A DNA stretch of 64,000 nt, taken from contig OX597815.1 in the NCBI GenBank assembly GCA_951406725.2, forward strand, positions 73,470,001-73,534,000, written 5' to 3'. Positions 8,601-59,400 of the stretch are shown here, piece by piece. The position numbers and the translations under genes were made by a program. Below the pieces are notes generated by a model that worked only from the letters and a program-made list of their open reading frames with translations, did not search any database and was not told where the DNA came from. The DNA comes from Octopus vulgaris (lineage: Eukaryota). Within the stretch, counting starts at the first letter, position 1; each line of letters opens with the position of its first letter.

Positions 8601-11600
8601 AGTATGTATGCCCTCCAGAGATCCTGAAAATTGTAATCTCTTTTCCTTCTCCCATTCATTCTATACAGACAAACACCTCAAAAGTAAATAGATAACTCTC
8701 ATTATACTGTTTTATCTGTGCACATACCACCTAGTACTTTAAACTTGCTATAGTATTTTATACACAAAATCATGTCTAGGAAATACTAGAGTAAGTATTC
8801 AAATGCATGAAATTTCATTATTTTGTTTCTAGAAATAAATCTTTCAAGAACGATGGTATCTATTTACTTTTAAGATTATCATCATCATTAAATACCCGTT
8901 TTCTGTGCTGGCATATCTTGGACAGTTTGACCATATCTTGTAAGGCCAGGGGCTGCACCAGGCTCCATAGTCTGTTTTGAGACATCTATGTATATCTGTC
9001 ATTCTGAGACTGTGGTTCCCCCATTATTTCAAAATTTTATATTTGAACATTATATTGGCTCTATGATTTGAAAGAGAAACATTTTAAAGCATAACTTGTT
9101 TCTCTATGCACTTTTCAGTTTCCACAGTTACTTTATTCTGCTTGTCAAGTAAATAGGACAGATAAAAATTTAGTGTCTTGTCCATGCTACCAGCAAAAGA
9201 AAGTAAAAACACATGATTTTTGTTTTTTTTAACTGAGAAACTAATATCATTTTCACCTGGCTGACATTCACCTAAGATGAAAGCCACTCCTAACCAATAT
9301 AACTTTCAAAGCCAAGATAAGGTGGAAAAAAACAACAAAAAAACAACAACCTTAATTTGTCTGTGCCGTTCACTTTCTGTGTCTTGGAGTTTCTGCTTTA
9401 GCTGCTGGATACATTTTCCTTGTTCAATATTCGATTCTGATAGCTGCAAAGAGAAAAGTATTAATTTTTACACAGCAGAACATGTTTCAAGTTGAAGCCA
9501 AATTTAAGCAACAACTGTAGATTGAGGAAATTAACCCTTTTGATACCAACCCACCTGAGACTGTTCCTAGTTCTATGATGCAAACTTCATGCTTTAAGGT
9601 GATCTAAATTAAGACCTTCCATCAAAATTTCCTCTTAATTTATATTCCAAACACCAGCTTACTAAGGACAAAATTATTTTGATAAATTCTTCATTATTTT
9701 CAAGATTAATTGAAACAAAAGCAGTATTTTTCAACAGAAATATGGTAACAAAAGGGTTAGAGTGATCTAAAGTAAAATCTTCCATCAAAGTTTCCTCTTA
9801 ATTCATGTTCCAAACACCAGCTTAATAGTGACAAAGTTGTTCTACTAAATTCTTCAAAATCAAGTGAAACAAAGGCAAAATATTTCAAAAGAAATATAAA
9901 CGGAAGGGTTAATTAACAGTATTTGCTACTAATTAAATATATATCTCATAAAGATTACAGTGCTGTGAGCATTATTTCAACTTTGTCTAAGAAAAACCAT
10001 TAAATCATTGCTATAATACTGTTAACAGACCTTCTTTCTCTTTTATCTTTTACTTATTTCAGCCATTGGACTGTGGCCAGGCTGGGGCACCACTTTGAAG
10101 GGTTTAGTAGAATTAATTAACCCCAATACTTATTATTTAAAAAAAAAAGTCTCATACTTATTTTATCAGTCTCTTTCATTGAATCACTATGTTAGAGCGA
10201 CTAAATAAACCAATGCCAGCTGTCAAATGGTGAGGAAAAAACACAAAGAACACACGCACATATGCATATGCACATGTGTGCATACAGGAGCCCCCCCATC
10301 AGTCACTTGAACATGCATCAGCACAAGTATGCAAAACCCTAAGCATGATATTTTTAAATGAATGCACGTCTCTTCCCTCCGTGCCTTCAATGTTTATATC
10401 CAAAGGGATGGCCACCAACTTAGGTCAATACAACTTGGCACCAATACTAGTTTCAAATTTTGGCACAAGGCCAGTAATTTCGGGGCAGGGACCAAGTCAA
10501 TTACATCAACCCCCAGCGCTCAACTGAGACATTGCTCTCAGAGTACAAAGAGCTAGAACAGATACTGCTAAGCATTTTGCATGAGTCTCTGGATTGGTAC
10601 TTTCTCATCAACCTTAACCTTTTAGCATTTAAACCAGTCAAATCCGGTTGAAATATTCTCCCTGTGTTATGTTCAAACTGACCAGATCTGGCTTCTCACA
10701 CTTATCCTGTGATGTCATCCTAAAAATAATCAATCGCGTCATCAAAATCTCTAAACTACAAAATAACGCATGATTAATTCAAAACAACATGAATAAATGA
10801 GCAGGCTGTGTAGTAAGTAACTTACTTCCCAACCACATGGTTCTGGGTTCAGTCCCACTGCGTGACACCTTAGGCAAGTGTCTTCTACTATAGCCTCAGG
10901 CCGATCAAAGCCTTGTGAGTGGATTTGGTACATGGAAACTGAAAGAAGCCCATCGTATATATGTGTGTATGTGTGTGCATTTGTGTCTGCCACTCCAACA
11001 TCACTTGACAACCGATGCTGGTGTGTTTACATCCCCATAACTTAGCAGTTCGCCAAAATAGACCGATAGAATAAGTACTAGGCTTACAAAGAATAAGTCC
11101 TAGGGTCGATTTGCTTGATTAAAGGTGGTGCTCTAGCATGGCCGCAGCCAAATGACTGAAACAAATAAAAGAATAAAATAAACAAGCATTATATATTTGA
11201 CAGGCATATTAAATAAAGTTGACTGTGGCAGGATCTGAACTCAGAGAGGTGGAACAAATACCATGAAGCTGTCTATATTCTATTCAACACTGTAATGCCT
11301 CAGCCAACTTGCAGCCTTCATGCTTATTTCAAAAAGACAGTATAGCAACAGTACAACCACCATATAACCACAGTATGACAATTGTATAACTAGCATATAA
11401 CCATTATATAACCACTGTAGAACCACCACAGTATAACGGCAATACAACCACAGTAAACCATCATATAATAACAATACAACCACAGTATAACCATTGTATA
11501 ACCACTGCATAACGGGTAAGAGTAAAGACCCCGTTTGGTCCTGAATGACCATAGGATTGCACCTAGAAAGTCCCCTTCTGAAACATGGTTGTTTATGGAA

Positions 11601-13392
11601 GACCAGCAGTCACTCATGCATACCAGCCTCCCCTCTCTATGCCACTGATGTTATCCAAGGGAAATGCAAACACTGATACAGCTTGGCACCACTGACGATG
11701 CAACTCATTTCTACAGCTGAGCAAACTGGAGCAATGTGAAATAAAGTGTCTTGCTCAAGAACACAATACGCAGCCTGGTCTAGGAATCGAACTCACCACC
11801 TCATGATTGTGAGCCCAATGCTCTAACTACTGAACCACGTGCCTTCAGCAGTATAACCACTGAATAACCACCACAGTATAATAACAGTACAACCACTATG
11901 TAACCACAATACAACTACAGTATAACTATTGTAAAACCACAGTATAACCATCATATGAGTAACATGTAACCATATTATAACTTTTGTATAACCACCAGAG
12001 TATAATGACAATACAACCACAGTATAACCACTATAAAACCACTGTATAACCATCATATGACTAACATACAACCACAGTATAACCATTGTATGATTAACAT
12101 ACAACCTCAGTATAACCATTGTATAACCACTGTATAACCATCATATAACTAACATATATCCATTGTATAACCACCACAGTATAAAGACAATACATCCACA
12201 ATACAACCACTATACAACCACTGTATGACTAAACCACTGTATAACCATTGTATAACTAGCATGTGACCACTGTATAACCCTTGCATAACCACAGTATAAC
12301 TACAATATAACCCTGTACAATCACTGTATAGCCACAATATACAGCAGGAATAACTACAGCTGTTATTTACCTGGCTATTAAGTTCTTTATATTTTTTTTC
12401 CGTGTTTGCGTATGTTGTTCTGAACTGTTCTTCCATGTCTGAAACCTTTTTACTGTGTTGTTGTTGCAAATCATTGAGTTTTTCTGATAGTTTGGATTCA
12501 CTGAAATATTTCATTTAAGGAAAATCAAAGCAAGAATAATAACTGTAAACAACAATAATGACAATTACAGCATGGAATGAAGGCACATATTAGCCACTCA
12601 AAAACACGTAGAGACTGTTTAAACATTTATTATTTATCTTTTATCTGCTTCAGTCATTAGACTACAGGCCATGCTGGGACACAGCCTTGGAAAAGTTTTA
12701 GTCAAATGAATTGACCCTAGTACTTATTGCTATTTTTTTTTTTAAGCTTGCTACTCATTCTATCAGTCCCCTTTTGCTGAACCATTGAGTTACAGGAATG
12801 TAAACAAACCAACATTGGTTGTCAAGCGGTGGTGGGGACAAAAACTCAGACATACACACACACATATATACAACACGCTTCTTTCAGTTTCTGTCTACCA
12901 AATCCACTCACAAGGTTTTGGTTGGCCCAAGGCTATAATGGAAAACACTTAACCAAGGTGCCATTCAGCGGGCCTGAGCCCTGAACCATGTGGTTGGGAA
13001 GCAAACTTCGTACCATACAGCCATGCCTGTGTCTATGTATATAGATGAAATTATATTTATGACCCAACCCTGAAACCTATATATATATATATATATATAT
13101 ATACAAAGTAAGATAGGAGTTATGGGGGTAACCCACTATAGGATATTATCTATGCAATATACTGTTGGTAAAGTACCCAGCTGAAACAGCTATAAGAAGT
13201 GATTTTATTGATTTTAATAATTTATATTATGACTTTTATAATTTGTATTCTTATCTCATATGTATTGAATTATAAGATATATATGTATGATATTGAGGTT
13301 CTCATTTTGTTAAATGAATAAATAATCCAACATTCTAATATCCGAAAGTTGATGAACAAACTAAATTTATTTCTCCATTTTCTTATTTGTAT

Positions 13393-33331: not shown

Positions 33332-33718
33332 AACACAAACACACACACATGTGTATGTATGTATGTATGTATGTATGTATGTATGTATGTATGTATGTAT
33401 GTATGTGTGTGTATGTATATATATATATATAGTCTCAAAGAAAAAGAAGAGACTCACTTTCTGGTCACATTCATTTTTCTTCATCTGATACATATTTTCC
33501 ATTTCTTTCTTCAACTCTTCAATCTGTTTATCTTTGCTCTCTTTTGTTTTTTCTATTTCCAGTTTCAGTGATTTCACTAAAAAGAACAACAAAAACAAAA
33601 CAAAAACAATAATAAATAAATAAAAGAAATCAATGAAAGATAATAATACTTCATTTAGTTGAAGATAACAAGAGAATATTTTTAATGCTCTCTCTCTCTC
33701 TTTCTCTTTATCTTTCTA

Positions 33719-33757
<39 letters not shown>

Positions 33758-36700
33758 TACATGCACACATATACACAAAAATATACAAATATATATATAT
33801 ATATATATATTGATATGTGTGTCGCAGCAGCAATATTATTATCATTACTATCATTATAATTATTAGTATTATTGGTGGTGATGGTAGTAGTAGTATTTCA
33901 TGGTTGCATTTTATAACACAAGATGTTAGAAACATTTACATATAGCTGTCCCCACTCCTTCCACACACACACTGCAACATCAGTGACAGAAGGTGCTACG
34001 TTAGTCAAATTTATGTTTTACAAGGTGTCATTTCACATCCACTTGTAGTTTTTATAGTAGCAATATACTTACATATTTATGTACGTACGTATATTATACA
34101 TAGTATTATCAACTGTATAGTGGGAAACTTAACAAAATGTACCAATACTTCAATAATCTCTGTATGGCAGCAAATGATATAAAGTTATTGGTGTTGTCGT
34201 CGAACACTTTGCCCACCATGAGAAATGGCTCTCCATACTCTATTCTTAATAACTGGCACTCTGTTGTTTATGACAACAAGAGTTCCAGTTGATCCAATCA
34301 ATGGAACAGCCGTTTGTGAAATTAACATGCAAGTGGCTGAGCACTTCACAGAAACATGTACCCTTAACGTAGTTCTCAGGGAGATTCAGCATAACACAGA
34401 ATGTGATAAGGCTGGTCATTTTTGCTAGATGAATGAACTGAAACAACATGAAATAAAGTGTCTTGCTCAAGGACACCATGCTACTGAGAACTGAACTCAT
34501 GACCTTGCGATCATGAACCAAATACCTTAACCACTAAGCCATGTGCCTTCACTCTATTCTTAATATACCATGGGAGTTACTAGTGTCTCTCAATGGTGAT
34601 GTTTTTATATGGATCCTCACATTTGTGGTTCAAATTACATTATTTGAATCTTAGAACTGCCAGCACTGAGACCATCAGATCACATGATTTCGACCTTTCT
34701 TGGTCTTGTCAATGATGGACATGCAACCACTAGAGATAGCAGTGATTCATCTCCCTGCCAGCAATATATAGAATGACAGTCCTGGAACAGACACTGGTGT
34801 CATGATTAGCCAGTGGGCTTGTTAAAAATATTTATTAATGACAGAGGTAGAATTAATATCAAGAGGTAATATTTATCCCCACTTAATTGTGGATGTCCTG
34901 TCAGAACAAACTATAACAATATAAACAAAGTGTACAGAACATGTCCTCCCTTGTATTTCTCAAAAGGTTTTCAATTTGAATCAAAAGAAGCTGAGATAGG
35001 ACCTGGTAAGAAGGTTGCAAGTCACCCTATCTGTAATCAGGGTGCTGTCCTCCATAAAATAAATTGTGAAAAAGAAACCATTAAGGCTTATATTAGTGTT
35101 TCCCAACAAGGATCTTTATTTTCCTTGGGGGTCCATACGCGATTTTGTGGTTAAAATTTATCAGCAATAAATTGGTTATACTTCTATAATATACAAAATA
35201 TTTTTAACAATTTTTTAAATATAATTCCTAATGATATTTATTCATAAAAAGTTCATTCTGATGGGTGGTTGGTGTTAAGAAGAGCATCCAGCTATAAAAA
35301 CCATGCCAAAACATACACAGAAGTCTGGTGCTGTCTTCTGTCTGGCCAGCTCCTGTCAAACCATCCAACCCATGCCAGCATGGAAGGTGGACATTAAATG
35401 ACGATAATAATGATGATAATATGTTTTTTTAAACATCAATTGGCTTGGAAGGTCATTTGAATAAAATAGGAATCAAAACATTGCATAGGCAAAAAAATGG
35501 TTGAGAAACACTGGCTTATATAATTTGAGATGAGATATAACCTGGAGAAAAAAAATTATAAATAAATGAAAATAAAAATCCATAAATGGAGGTATAATGA
35601 ACATTTTAACACATTTTATTATGTATGTCACCACTGACTTCTGCAGGGTAGAATGAATATATTTATTAGCAAAAGAGAGACAGTATTAATGCCAAGAGGT
35701 AATAATTATCCCCACTTAAATGGGAATGTTTTGTAAGAACAAACTATACTCTCATATCAGCTTTTTGGTGCAAATTATACTGTTTATATTGTTGGCAGAG
35801 AGATAAATCTTTGCCACCACCAGCACTGGGACCATCAGATCACATGATTTCGACCTTTCTTGGTCTTGTCAATGATGGACATGCAACCACTAGAGATAGC
35901 AGTGATTCATCTCCCTGCCAGCAATATATAGAATGACAGTCCCGGAACAGATGCTGGTGTCCTGATTAGCCAGTGGGCTTGTTAAAAATATTTATTAATG
36001 ACAGAGGTAGAATTAATATCAAGAGGTAATATTTATCCCCACTTAAATGTGGATGTCCTGTCAGAACAAACTAATAACTGTAAACATGAGTGCATTTTAT
36101 ATATAAACATGAGTGCATTTTATATAAAAAAGCCAGTATGAGAGTTTCTCTCATGGTACCTACCACAGTATAGTTTGTTCTAACAGACGTTTAATATTAT
36201 CTCTCAGAATGAATATAATATTTGTTCTGTATTGTGGGAGTTCACCAGTGATATCCATTTTATAAATATGAGTAACTAGAACACTTAACCTTAGGTCAGC
36301 CTTGATTAATCTGGCCTATGATCAAAGACATGCCAGCCATGACCATCCATTTCTCAGACACAGTTCTCATCCGTTTCTTAGACACAGTTCACCTAGAAAG
36401 GGTAAAAACCCTCTTTGGTCATGAATGACTATGGGATTGCACCTAGAAAGTTCCCCTCCAAAATACTAGTCCAGGCAAGGTTGTTTATGGAAGTTTCCCA
36501 TGCATACCAGCCTCCGCTCTTCACACCAGTGATGTTATCCAAGGGAAAGACAAAGGCCAATACAGCTTGACACCAGTGATGTTGCAACTCATTGCTGCAG
36601 CTGAGTGAACTGGAATGTGAAATACAGAGTTTTTTTTACTCAAGAACACAAAAGCCCAGTCTGGAAATCCAACTCATTACCTCATGATTGTGATCCTGAT

Positions 36701-39700
36701 GCTCTAAGCACTGAGCCATGTGCCTTCACAGTTCACTTAGAAACACATTATCCACTGTATCTAAATTTGGCTGTCCTTTTGAATTTAATACCTCTGCCAC
36801 TCATGGACATGCTTACAAAATCCAAAAAACAGTACAGCATTTATGAATTCCAGAAACGTTTTTTTCATGTGCAGAATTATTGAAGTATGGAATAAACTAC
36901 TTTTCAAAAATTCCATGCTCCCTGAAATTCACAAAAACTACTGCCTATGCACCCCTCCTATTTTATAGCCTTTTACTTCCCATTTTCTGTTTTTATTGTA
37001 TCTACTGTGCATATACTTCTAGCTTTCATTACCAACTTTCTTTATTTGCTTTATTTGACTTGCATACCTGCTTTCTATCCTCTCCCTTAATCCTTTTTTG
37101 ACAAGTTGTAGTGTACCTGAGTACTATATGCAATAATGGACTCCCCTGCCAAAGACGGTGTATGAGTGTTTAATTTTTGCTGAATGACATGCATAAATGA
37201 TTTGTTTATAGTGATCGAATGTATGTGCCACACATTAGTTCACTCTCTCCATCAAATTGATGTTGTCTGAACAGGTGCACTTGTGTCCCACACATCAGGT
37301 GTTAAAGTGATCGTAGAGCAACATGAGATGAAGTGTTTTGCTCAAGAACACAATGAACCACCTAGTCAGGGAATTGAAACCATGATCTCGTGACTGTGAG
37401 TGCAACACCCTAACCACTACACCATGCATCCTCATAATACTATATACTATATGCTCATTATTAATATCATCTTTTTTTTTTCAAGATGTGAGGGTATAGG
37501 ATTTGGTTGCTGTTTGTAGCAAGTCAGGTGACTTCACAGAAACACCTCACTGACTCCAGTGATACAAAGTCAAATCATGTGCTGTTGAATAGTGAAGGGG
37601 ACAAATCCAGACAATTAAATGACACTGACAAACAAGATGGTTTATTATTCAGATCCAAACAATTAAATGACACTGACAAACAAGATGGCTTATTGTTCAG
37701 AGTTGATTAATTTTTCTATAATTCTCCCAAGTAACAATAAAATTAATCTTTATCTTCTTTTTTTTTTTTTATCTTTCACTTTTTTCAGTCAGTGGATTGT
37801 GACTATGCTGGGGAACCACCTCTGAAGGAGTTTAGTCAAATTAAATTGACCCCAATGCTTAGCTTTTAAAGTCTGGTATGCAAACCAGCACTGGTTGTCA
37901 AGTAGTGAGAGGATAAACATAAACTCACACACACAAATATATGGCAGGCTTCTTTCAGTTTCCATCCACCAAATTCACTCACAAAGCTTTGGTCAGCTCA
38001 GGGCTTTAGCAGAAGACATTTGCCCAAGGTGTCACACAGTGGGACTGAACCCAGAACCATGCGGTTGAGAAGCAAACTTCTTACCACTCAGCGACATACA
38101 AACACACACACGCACATATGTGGTAGTGTACGTGTGTGTGTGTATGCAAGTGTGAGTATGTATATGTTTGTTTTTCTTTGTTTTTACATCATGTAATAGA
38201 GTTGTAAATGATTGTCACTGTCATACAAGCAGAGTCGTTCATTTCTAATATTCTGCAAATATAGGGCAGCAAGCTGGCAAAATCGTTAGCATGCCGGGCA
38301 AAATGCTTAGCAGTATTTCGTCTGCCCTTATGTTCTGAGTTCAAATTCTGCTGAGGTCGACTTTGCCTTTCATCTTTTCAGAGTCAGTTAAATAAGTACC
38401 AGTTACACACTGGGGTTGATGTAATTGACTTAATCCCTTTGTCTCTCCTTGTTTGTCCTTTCTATGTTTAGCCCCCTGTGGGCAATGAAGAAATATTCTG
38501 AAAAAACATGTCTGGCCATGGGGAAAATATTATTTTGCATGGAAACAGATGAGGGTAGGTGAAAGGAAGGGCATGTGGCTGTTGAAAATCTACCTCAATT
38601 AATTTGATCCATCCAACCCATGCAAACATGGTAAAGTAGATGTTAACCCTTTAGCATTTACATTACTCTCTAAAACATTAATGTCATGTAAACAAACCCG
38701 TGTCGGTGGCACATAAAAAGCACCCAGCACACTCTGTAAAGTGGTTGGCATTAGGAAGGACATCCAGTTGTACACACCATGCCAAAACAGACAACTGGAG
38801 TCTGGACAGCTCTCCAGCTGGCCAATTCCTGTCAAACCCGCCAACCCATGCCAGCATGGAAAACAGATGTTAAATGATGAGGAAGATGATGATGAAAGAT
38901 AATTTATTCCTATTGCTTTGAATTAATCATGTATTTTCTTGTAGATTTGAGATCTCAATTATTTGATTGTTTATTTTTAGAATTACATTGTATGGTAGGC
39001 ATGAGAGGTTGGATCTAACCTGTTTGAACATCAAACTGGTAAAATAATATTTCAGCCAAATATGGCTAGTTTAAATCCTAAAGGGGTTACAATAATAATG
39101 ATGACGATTCTCTACATATACTCACCTTCATTTTCTAATTTAAATAAAATTTCTTCAAGCTCACTTCTTTTTTCATTGAAATTTGTTTTCAGTTCTTCAA
39201 TTTCTGCATTTTTACGATCCAAGATCTGTAAAATTGAAAAAAAGCACAGCACAAGTTCACAAAGTAAAATATTGGGTCATCCCATAAATAATGCAGTTTT
39301 TTATACTTCTTTTAGTTTTCAAAATTAAGATAAACAAAGTTCTTTTTTAATCTAAAATATACTCTCCTTCATTTCCAACAGTACTGTTCTACTATTTAGT
39401 GACTTGCAAGGCCCCTCTTGCAAAATTCACTTGTCTGTGACGAAAAATACTCCTCCACTATTTTTCTAACCGCGTCTATAGAATTCATATTTTTTCTGTC
39501 TAAATGATTTTGAAGACTGTGGAACAAATGATAATCAGATGGGACAATTTCTGGCCAATATGGTGGGGGGGGGAGGACATTGTTTCCCACTCCAACTGTT
39601 CCAGCTTTTGGAATGTTATCCTTGCTGTATGTGGCTAAGCATAATCCACATAGAAGAATACCTTTTGTCTTGAGTCCGAAGATGGTCATTTTCCTTCTAG

Positions 39701-57903: not shown

Positions 57904-59400
57904 GAAGGAGGATGAGAAGAAGAAGAAGAAGAAGAAGAAGAAGAAGAAGAAGAAGAAGAAGAAGAAGAAGAAGAAGAAGAAGAAGAAGAAGAAGAAGAAG
58001 AAGAAGAAGAAGAAGGTGGAGGTGCCATGACAGTAGTATGTTAAATGGTCAACTGCCCGCTGTGGACGATAGTAAAATGGTCAAGTGACCTGCTGTGGAT
58101 GGTAGTAGTAATTGTTGAATTCCTGAAACATTTCTTTTGAATGTTTTGTTTATAAAATTTGCATAGATGTTATTCTAAACCATAATAGTGGTAAAGTTAG
58201 GAAGGAGGAGGAAGGAGACGAAGAAGAAAGAGAAGGGAGAATAAGAAAGAATGTAGGTCGTATGAAAGTAGTAAGGTGTTAAATAGTCAAGTGACTTAAA
58301 ATTGGCTCGTTATGGATTATAGCAGTGATTGGGACTGTTTTTTAATGAATTCTTGGGAATCTCTTGAATGTATCATTTTTAATATTTGCGTGTGTATTTG
58401 TGTTATTCTAAGGCCATGGCGGATATGTCATTTGTCGTAGACGCGTTCAAAAGGGGTCTGTATTTTGTAATAAAGAAAGTCTCTTTACTGATTCATTGGC
58501 TTCAGGTTGTATCTTCCCTGAATTGGTAGAGGGGAAAAATTCTGAAGCTTGGATTTTTGTTATTGGCACAAATGTCTATGTGTTGGCTGAATGTTATTTT
58601 TCTGTTTAGGGGAATTTTGATCTGGGATCTGTGCAGAGCCATTCTTTTACATAGACTGTTTTTTGTTTGGCCTATGTATTGTTCTTTACCCTTCATAAAT
58701 CCCAAATTTTATTTTGGTACTTATGAGAGCAACTGTCTTCAAAGACTCATATTGTCTTTCAATGCTTGAAATGAGGAGTTGACAGACAGTTGACAACTGA
58801 TGAAGGGTCATTCTTTATGTTACTTGCCCTGTTTTCCATTTGTTTCACCCCAGTTACTCCACCTAGTAATATGAGTAACCATGAAGTTTATCTACAGTAA
58901 GAAACCCGTTCAGTTCAGGCCTTTTCTTTCATACTTTAACCTCTCACCTCCTAGCATAAAATCACTCCCCTATTCACTGTAGTCCCACTCCATTGAAGAG
59001 GATCTTAATTTTGCAAGACATTGGTGCCATGAACAAAGTACCTAATACACTCCTAAAGTGGTTGGCATTAGGAAAGGGCTGGGGCAGAACAAATTCTTCT
59101 TACATTTAGAGGAGTTAGTGAGAAAAAATCAGTAGTAGTAGTATATTATTTCTTGTTGATAGGATCAGCAAAACAGTACTCAGTCTAGTAAGAGATAAGT
59201 ATGATTTAATGAATACAGAAGTTATACATGAGCTACTTAAAGTTTCATGCTCAGATGTAGCAGTAATTGGACAGGCTTATATAGACAGATCATGCACAAT
59301 ATACTATACAAGCCTATCTGATCACTGAACCATCCAAGCATGAAACTTTAAGAAGCTCGCATATAAATCCTGTATTCATTAAATTATATGTGTGTATATA

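Follow-up and report, generated by a model that had tools for sequence, protein, structure and literature searches.

Two identical hammerhead ribozyme motifs lie in an intron of a CEP112-like gene of Octopus vulgaris, and their spacing raises the question of whether the pair is a working retrozyme-like unit or an accident of duplication. The locus was analysed within a window of 64,000 nt, the whole stretch of DNA under study (contig OX597815.1, positions 73,470,001 to 73,534,000). The account that we regard as probable is that of an old, decayed insertion of a ~350-nt non-LTR retrozyme, likely pasted by Penelope-type enzymes, with a 254-bp part that was probably duplicated long afterwards at a distance of 1160 nt, so that the spacing of the two ribozymes is likely accidental.

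The hammerhead pair, its host intron and its repeat family

The direct repeats that carry the motifs (34660-34913 and 35820-36073) are 254 nt each, are offset by 1160 nt, and differ at 6 positions, none of which falls inside the 47-nt motif. On the minus strand, the motif reads CCAUCA UUGACAA GACC-AAGAAA-GGUC GAA AUCAUGUGAU C UGAUGG, and it combines the YUGANRA / GAAA / UH core, the 3-8 pair, and the three helices of a type I hammerhead. The two motifs and the exons that flank their intron are as follows:

35832..35878, minus strand: type I hammerhead of copy A, with a U3-A8 core and a predicted cut after C17 (35838)
34672..34718, minus strand: type I hammerhead of copy B, with a predicted cut after C17 (34678)
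39126..39225, minus strand: upstream coding exon of the CEP112-like host gene, with AG/GT ends, a pyrimidine tract, an open frame, and compatible phase
33458..33576, minus strand: downstream coding exon of the same gene, with AG/GT ends, a pyrimidine tract, an open frame, and compatible phase

A strict type I descriptor finds exactly two sites in the window and none in 60 dinucleotide shuffles. The coordinates, spacing, six differences, and type I class given in a preliminary description of this DNA are thereby reproduced, and the motif search permitting U3-A8 that it had proposed returns just the two predicted sites. The Rfam Hammerhead search proposed alongside reports no hammerhead: none is present among the best 150 of 156 matches in the window at E<=1, nor in 34500-36200 at E<=10, and the gathering threshold is not reached. 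Both motifs are real as sequence. One detail of the earlier proposal, an extension of stem I by GCAU/GUGC, is replaced by another pairing: in the family, CGAG is matched by CUCG (helix 4, with 81.8% of cells paired). Of these four distal pairs, two are retained in copy A.

As had been described, the motifs are intronic and have the orientation of the host gene, whose two flanking minus-strand exons are well formed and compatible in phase. The sole DUF4485 match of the genome, which we take to be a mark of CEP112, is found ~79 kb upstream of the 39225 exon, on its contig and strand. A protein atlas search with the host exon returned no name; the CEP112-like identity of the gene is supported. 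Elsewhere, the window harbors a ~1-kb region of 11-nt minisatellite (11337-12341) and a (GTGC)80 array with 99% matches (1989-2307).

The repeat belongs to a dispersed family, as emerged from the genome-wide search that had also been suggested. A 327-nt query against the 2.8 Gb genome (227 contigs) yields 2163 candidates, with 79 matches among the 40 scored and full-length copies mostly at 77-82%. Tandem offsets of 311-362 nt appear on self-comparison in 25 of 28 other loci, 15 loci hold at least two hammerhead-bearing units, and arrays reach ~3.8 units at a constant period. The motif pattern is matched exactly 49 times in its 35-position form and 114 times in its 30-position form (reversed controls, 0). 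The natural monomer, measured from site to site, has 356 nt and a GC content of 0.38, and is 63% paired as a circle (z -3.1 vs 40 mononucleotide shuffles). PLE protein matches are absent from the units and from 57 loci. The family thus shows the traits of a non-LTR retrozyme, i.e., tandem repeats of ~170-400 nt in many copies, non-autonomy, and a GC content below 45% with high self-pairing. Judged by sequence, it is a metazoan non-LTR retrozyme, dispersed and non-coding, with one type I hammerhead per unit, and the earlier assignment of the motifs to a retrozyme stands.

Loci that repeat the window or each other were removed before counting (L001, L002, L035, L036, L039, L048, and L050). The core and helix analysis (40 units) also leaves out paralogous duplicates, namely L017 and one unit of L023, the 3'-end analysis (57 loci) also leaves out L029, which is the query, and the unit alignment comprises 41 of 64 units plus copy A. 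In the tree, L003 groups with L017 (C25) and L018 with L023 (C22), probably as segmental duplications.

Among known systems, the metazoan non-LTR retrozymes are the nearest in kind, above all the family of the mussel Mytilus galloprovincialis, whose repeats are reported to measure 350-390 bp (Cervera and de la Pena 2020, PMC7229834). As that source describes them, they share with the octopus family a type I hammerhead in tandem repeats of similar length (~350 nt in octopus), thousands of motifs, low GC (0.38 in the natural octopus monomer), a self-paired monomer, and a non-coding nature. In contrast to the mussel family, the octopus family looks extinct and CpG-decayed, its arrays comprise 1-4 units, and most of its cores carry U3; the likeness drawn here is one of published descriptions.

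Insertion anatomy and Penelope-like elements

Copy A is embedded in a larger block composed of the following elements:

35749..36075, minus strand: copy A unit 1 of the ~350-nt family, 327 nt, lacking ~27 nt found in other copies
35662..35748, minus strand: copy A partial unit 2, the first ~87 nt, stopping ~204 nt past the cut-site position ("long" 3' end class)
36076..36205, plus strand: inverted 5'-truncated family piece with a 23-nt internal tandem duplication, reaching by eye the "short" 3' end class
35650..35661, no strand: downstream copy of a 12-bp target-site duplication, checked by hand
36206..36217, no strand: upstream copy of the same duplication, checked by hand
35788..35925, minus strand: long imperfect rod with hammerhead A at its tip (-60.5 kcal/mol, z -6.55, 0/200 shuffles)

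On the ribozyme strand, the order is inverted piece (36076-36205), unit 1 (36075-35749), and partial unit 2 (to 35662). The target duplication encloses exactly the block 35662-36205 and leaves copy B outside. Copy A is one insertion, then, made of 1.25 units and an inverted 5'-truncated piece; the preliminary description had overlooked the partial unit, the inverted piece, and the target duplication. BLAST follows the inverted piece to position 124 only, the remainder being read by eye across two deletions. At non-CpG columns, copy A departs by ~10% from each column's commonest letter, and its unit 2 differs by 16.9% from the start of unit 1. In the alignment of 42 sequences, 87.6% of the rod's cells are paired, and covariation in the rod and the hammerhead does not rise above shuffles. 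The structure thus gains no support beyond the pairing itself, as is to be expected of decayed copies of one source.

Across the family, 5' ends are ragged and 3' ends are fixed. The 57 loci provide 67 3' ends, which concentrate in two classes, 160-169 nt (30 ends) and 190-209 nt (13 ends) past the cut site, both at AT-rich runs. Outward-facing inverted pairs occur in 10 of the 57 loci, and half of these combine one short and one long end that differ by ~30-38 nt (BLAST); read by eye, the window locus has the same inverted short/long arrangement. It counts against the preferred account that, of 54 loci, only a minority has a clear target duplication. As the automatic scan for them yields many short chance words, the hand-checked 12-mer of the window is the only one relied on.

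PLE insertions typically show an inversion and a 30-40 bp tail (bioRxiv 10.1101/2021.04.23.441226). The octopus copies combine 5' truncation, an inverted 5' piece, and a tail of ~37 nt at one end, within that 30-40 nt range. Since the inversion and the ~30-38 nt end difference match these marks, we infer Penelope-type enzymes as the movers. Priming would have occurred at AT-rich targets from the fixed 3' positions, with 0.3-4 units copied at a time, which would leave ragged 5' ends, inverted pieces, and target duplications.

The genome does hold autonomous GIY-YIG PLEs with 781-aa open frames, and a minimal hammerhead with UUGAUAA lies downstream of the ORF in at least 6 of 30 fetched PLE loci. 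Comparison of the retrozyme unit with these PLEs, which represent 30 of 148 GIY-YIG matches and mostly one young family, reveals no homology (best E 0.02; none by tblastn). Thus, the driver is inferred and not found among them. The young PLE family (L068, L070, L071, L074, L079, and L085, with L077 assigned by eye) carries a minimal hammerhead whose core, UUGAUAA, has the U3-A8 pair and whose stem III is the palindrome ACAUGU. This hammerhead lies ~570-700 nt past the ORF in L071 and L079; the 3' end of the family enters (AT)n ~70 nt later. Further minimal-hammerhead-like motifs at L079:27 (+) and L072:3015 (-) are related neither to the retrozyme nor to the PLE family. The window itself contains a Penelope-like GIY-YIG endonuclease fragment (58430-58690, minus strand) with up to 61% identity over 82 aa to the PLE proteins of the genome.

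A different origin would make the family the solitary tandem pseudo-LTR of an extinct autonomous Penelope-like element, in which the hammerhead moved as part of the 3' end and no independent RNA stage of the unit ever existed. The PLE-type insertion anatomy fits such an origin, as do the closeness of Xenopus retrozymes to pseudo-LTRs (bioRxiv 10.64898/2026.07.22.740005) and the U3-A8 hammerheads near the 3' ends of the genome's own PLEs. However, an ORF combining RT and GIY-YIG between pseudo-LTRs is absent from the 57 loci and ~1.5 kb around them, where PLE coding sequence occurs in none; upstream of the 5' truncations lies either the previous unit or unrelated DNA; and arrays extend to nearly four units without change of period. 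In addition, the hammerhead resembles those of canonical retrozymes and differs from the minimal PLE motifs (PMC4209133), with 6 bp in stem I, 4 bp in stem II, and a true stem III. We judge this origin unlikely.

The likenesses to PLE pseudo-LTR hammerheads, as those are described in PMC4209133 and bioRxiv 10.1101/2021.04.23.441226, are 5' truncation, the inverted 5' piece, the 30-40 nt tail, AT-rich targets, and a palindromic stem III. U3-A8, reported in Schistosoma PLEs (PMC4209133), is common to these, to the PLEs of the octopus genome, and to the octopus retrozyme family. In contrast to the pseudo-LTR hammerheads, the latter has no ORF, no homology to the fetched PLEs, canonical helix sizes, and a short, constant period.

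Age of the family and origin of copy B

The tree of the family is star-like, with a mean terminal branch of 0.148 versus 0.015 for internal branches; together with a divergence of ~10% and the decay of CpGs, this makes the family look extinct. Its copies have diverged and have lost most of their CpGs: ~20 dinucleotide sites are mixed CG/TG/CA, and only 9 sites lie within one mismatch of the undecayed motif. Core positions 7-8 are among the mixed ones (CG 3, TG 18, CA 36, TA 4), TG and CA both being present in 4 of 15 multi-unit loci. Because this mixture is found within single loci, C7-G8 would have been the state at insertion, and as U3 is present in 34 of 40 units, the spreading form was likely U3·G8.

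The U3-A8 core is thus likely a product of CpG decay of U3·G8. Two hand counts on the 100 listed of 114 matches speak against this origin: CA outnumbers TG by 42 to 17 among U3 copies, and C3 occurs with G8 in 13 of 18 cases compared with 25 of 77 for U3 (Fisher p 0.003). Some source elements may therefore have had true C3-G8 or U3-A8 pairs. Subfamily markers linked to the 3/8 state were not detected, as 0 of 682 column tests survive correction (best p 0.0015). RNA editing was considered as the origin of G8 and rejected, since A>G changes on the ribozyme strand are no more frequent than would be expected from T>C (p 0.62). Outside CpG columns of the family alignment, G>A (12.6%) slightly exceeds C>T (10.2%) on the ribozyme strand (p 0.013).

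U3-A8 is a natural hammerhead variant (PMC4209133; PMC3088659) and is reported to be active in vitro (PMC3088659); data on U3·G8 were not found in the literature consulted.

The second motif belongs to a duplicate of different character:

34660..34915, minus strand: copy B, which duplicates the initial ~255 nt of copy A nearby and ends 18 nt past the cut site
34916..35649, no strand: host intron between copies A and B, without family match but with other dispersed repeats at 35254-35417

Copy B lies 734 nt past the target duplication of copy A, and host intron that does not belong to the element makes up 746 of the 1160 nt. The two copies have diverged by 2.4%, compared with 14.3-24.5% between units within five arrays. 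They have four family-rare states in common, a level of sharing (at least four) reached by 7 of 2016 family pairs, and the end of copy B fits neither 3' end class of the family. On these three grounds, copy B is likely a much younger, truncated local duplicate of copy A. It also reads through the cut site, which argues that it was not made from cleaved RNA. A DNA-level event could have produced it, either as a templated insertion or as a tandem duplication followed by deletion.

That copy B might instead be an assembly artefact, a concern already raised in the preliminary description, or a second independent insertion, is extremely improbable. Short near-identical duplicates can arise from assembly error, and copy B does start near the start of unit 1 of copy A. 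Nevertheless, the upstream junction of copy B is spanned by contigs from two DNA runs, X2 (organism A) and X4 (organism B); X4 also spans the downstream junction, and both cover the matching point of copy A. These contigs, from runs either of which might in principle be related to the source of the assembly, argue against an assembly error; for run X12 (organism E), none of the contigs listed lies over the junctions, and run X15, presumably of RNA, yields only contigs that differ at many positions. The six differences include one CpG that decayed in opposite directions in the two copies, and both the shared rare states and the end outside the two 3' classes are at odds with an independent insertion.

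The preliminary description had taken the 1160 nt for a retrozyme monomer. The family period is ~350 nt, and the target duplication surrounds copy A alone. An 1160-nt retrozyme unit is accordingly not supported: self-comparison of 28 other family loci shows no 1160-nt offset, and no target duplication frames the whole. The distance between the two ribozymes is likely an accident, and the intron likely holds no working device. Plant LTR retrozymes (PMC4918200) present the layout that had been assumed, in which two direct repeats, each with a hammerhead, flank non-coding sequence. In contrast to these, the window pair is of type I and not type III, has no target duplication around it, and consists of an insertion and its truncated later duplicate with host intron in the middle.

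Two further pairs of identical family motifs occur in the genome, one at C4:95989607 (+) and C4:95990013 (-), ~400 nt apart on opposite strands, and one at C2:32574217 and 32574770, 553 nt apart on one strand. Thus, local duplicates such as copy B are not unique.

Predicted cutting and significance

By analogy to the tested retrozymes of coral, mussel, and axolotl, the dispersed, non-coding arrays would have been transcribed into multimeric RNA and cut at each hammerhead into ~350-nt monomers or circles, probably in a dimeric fold via the palindromic stem III. The stem III sequence self-pairs at -8.6 kcal/mol as opposed to +1.1 kcal/mol as a hairpin, and its 10-mer in the CG form, present in 7 of 64 units, is a perfect palindrome, which fits such a fold.

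In context, the constrained hammerhead fold of copy A lies 1.4 kcal/mol above the minimum, with P(stem I) of 0.48 and P(stem III) of 0.03, according to a program that ignores tertiary contacts. For copy B, the corresponding fold lies 4.4-4.8 kcal/mol above the minimum with P(stem I) <=0.01, and copy B is predicted to misfold and not to adopt the hammerhead. Today, copy A may cut weakly, copy B probably does not cut, and the intron would likely be spliced normally.

The core and all three helices are kept in only 4 of 40 other units as well as in the copies of the window, so that copy A is among the better-preserved members of the family. By a rough sum, chance alone would leave ~70-230 motifs intact in 2163 copies if each site had changed with a frequency of 8-12%, which agrees with the 114 counted. 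The five core adenosines are unchanged (0 of 199) in 40 units picked by similarity, where ~22 changes would be expected, hinting at constraint. A pattern test free of similarity selection (10/215 vs 21/270, p=0.19) leaves this constraint unconfirmed. Introns are reported to contain 42-44% of the retrozyme copies of Xenopus, and of 9 predicted dimers tested in the same study, 8 did not cleave (bioRxiv 10.64898/2026.07.22.740005); an intronic site is thus common, and an intact motif is no proof of activity. By the definition of this preprint, a retrozyme is active if two or more tandem units with complete hammerheads follow one another directly. The 1.25 units of copy A contain a single hammerhead, and copy B is not consecutive with them.

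It is quite unlikely, in our estimate, that the accidental pair is nonetheless active, i.e., that both hammerheads fold as the host gene is transcribed, each by itself or jointly as a double hammerhead via the near-palindromic stem III, and that this frees an 1160-nt RNA containing the host intron segment or cuts some of the CEP112-like pre-mRNA. Both cores are complete and of the U3-A8 kind with reported activity, all three helices can form, stem III favors self-pairing, the motifs are sense to the gene, and the duplication is found in runs of organisms A and B. However, copy B is without the 3' arm of the rod and favors another fold, copy A has lost half of its distal stem I pairs, and a strand swap would probably require opening its local rod of -60 kcal/mol. 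The lack of the 1160-nt offset in the 28 other loci and the non-cleaving dimers of the preprint weigh against activity as well.

A bolder version, which we consider very unlikely, holds that the family spread with U3·G8 and that CpG decay turned about half of its copies into active U3-A8 ribozymes. The local duplication would then have framed 746 nt of intron and yielded a chimeric 1160-nt RNA or circle, a newborn retrozyme capturing host sequence that also acts as a cis brake on the CEP112-like mRNA.

On the preferred reading, that of a decayed insertion with a later local duplicate, the locus itself is of little weight, since decayed copies like it number in the thousands; cutting of the pre-mRNA by the intronic pair, if it occurred, would give it more importance. 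The element belongs to a known kind, and its family seems to be undescribed for this genome. The giant squid genome has 235 Rfam hammerhead hits (PMC6962438), and no description of a cephalopod retrozyme family was found in the literature open to search, although the supplementary lists of PMC7229834, PMC4209133, and the preprints may hold cephalopod entries. The family is thus of modest value, as a cephalopod retrozyme family for which no description was found and whose motif is missed by Rfam. Its decay also carries a caution, namely that U3-A8 "covariation" in old repeats can reflect CpG decay and not selection. Mobilisation of retrozymes by Penelope has been argued for vertebrates from co-occurrence and pseudo-LTR homology, in a preprint that states other organisms to be unexamined (bioRxiv 10.64898/2026.07.22.740005). 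The insertion anatomy of the octopus family offers evidence from invertebrate DNA that Penelope-type enzymes may have moved a non-LTR retrozyme.
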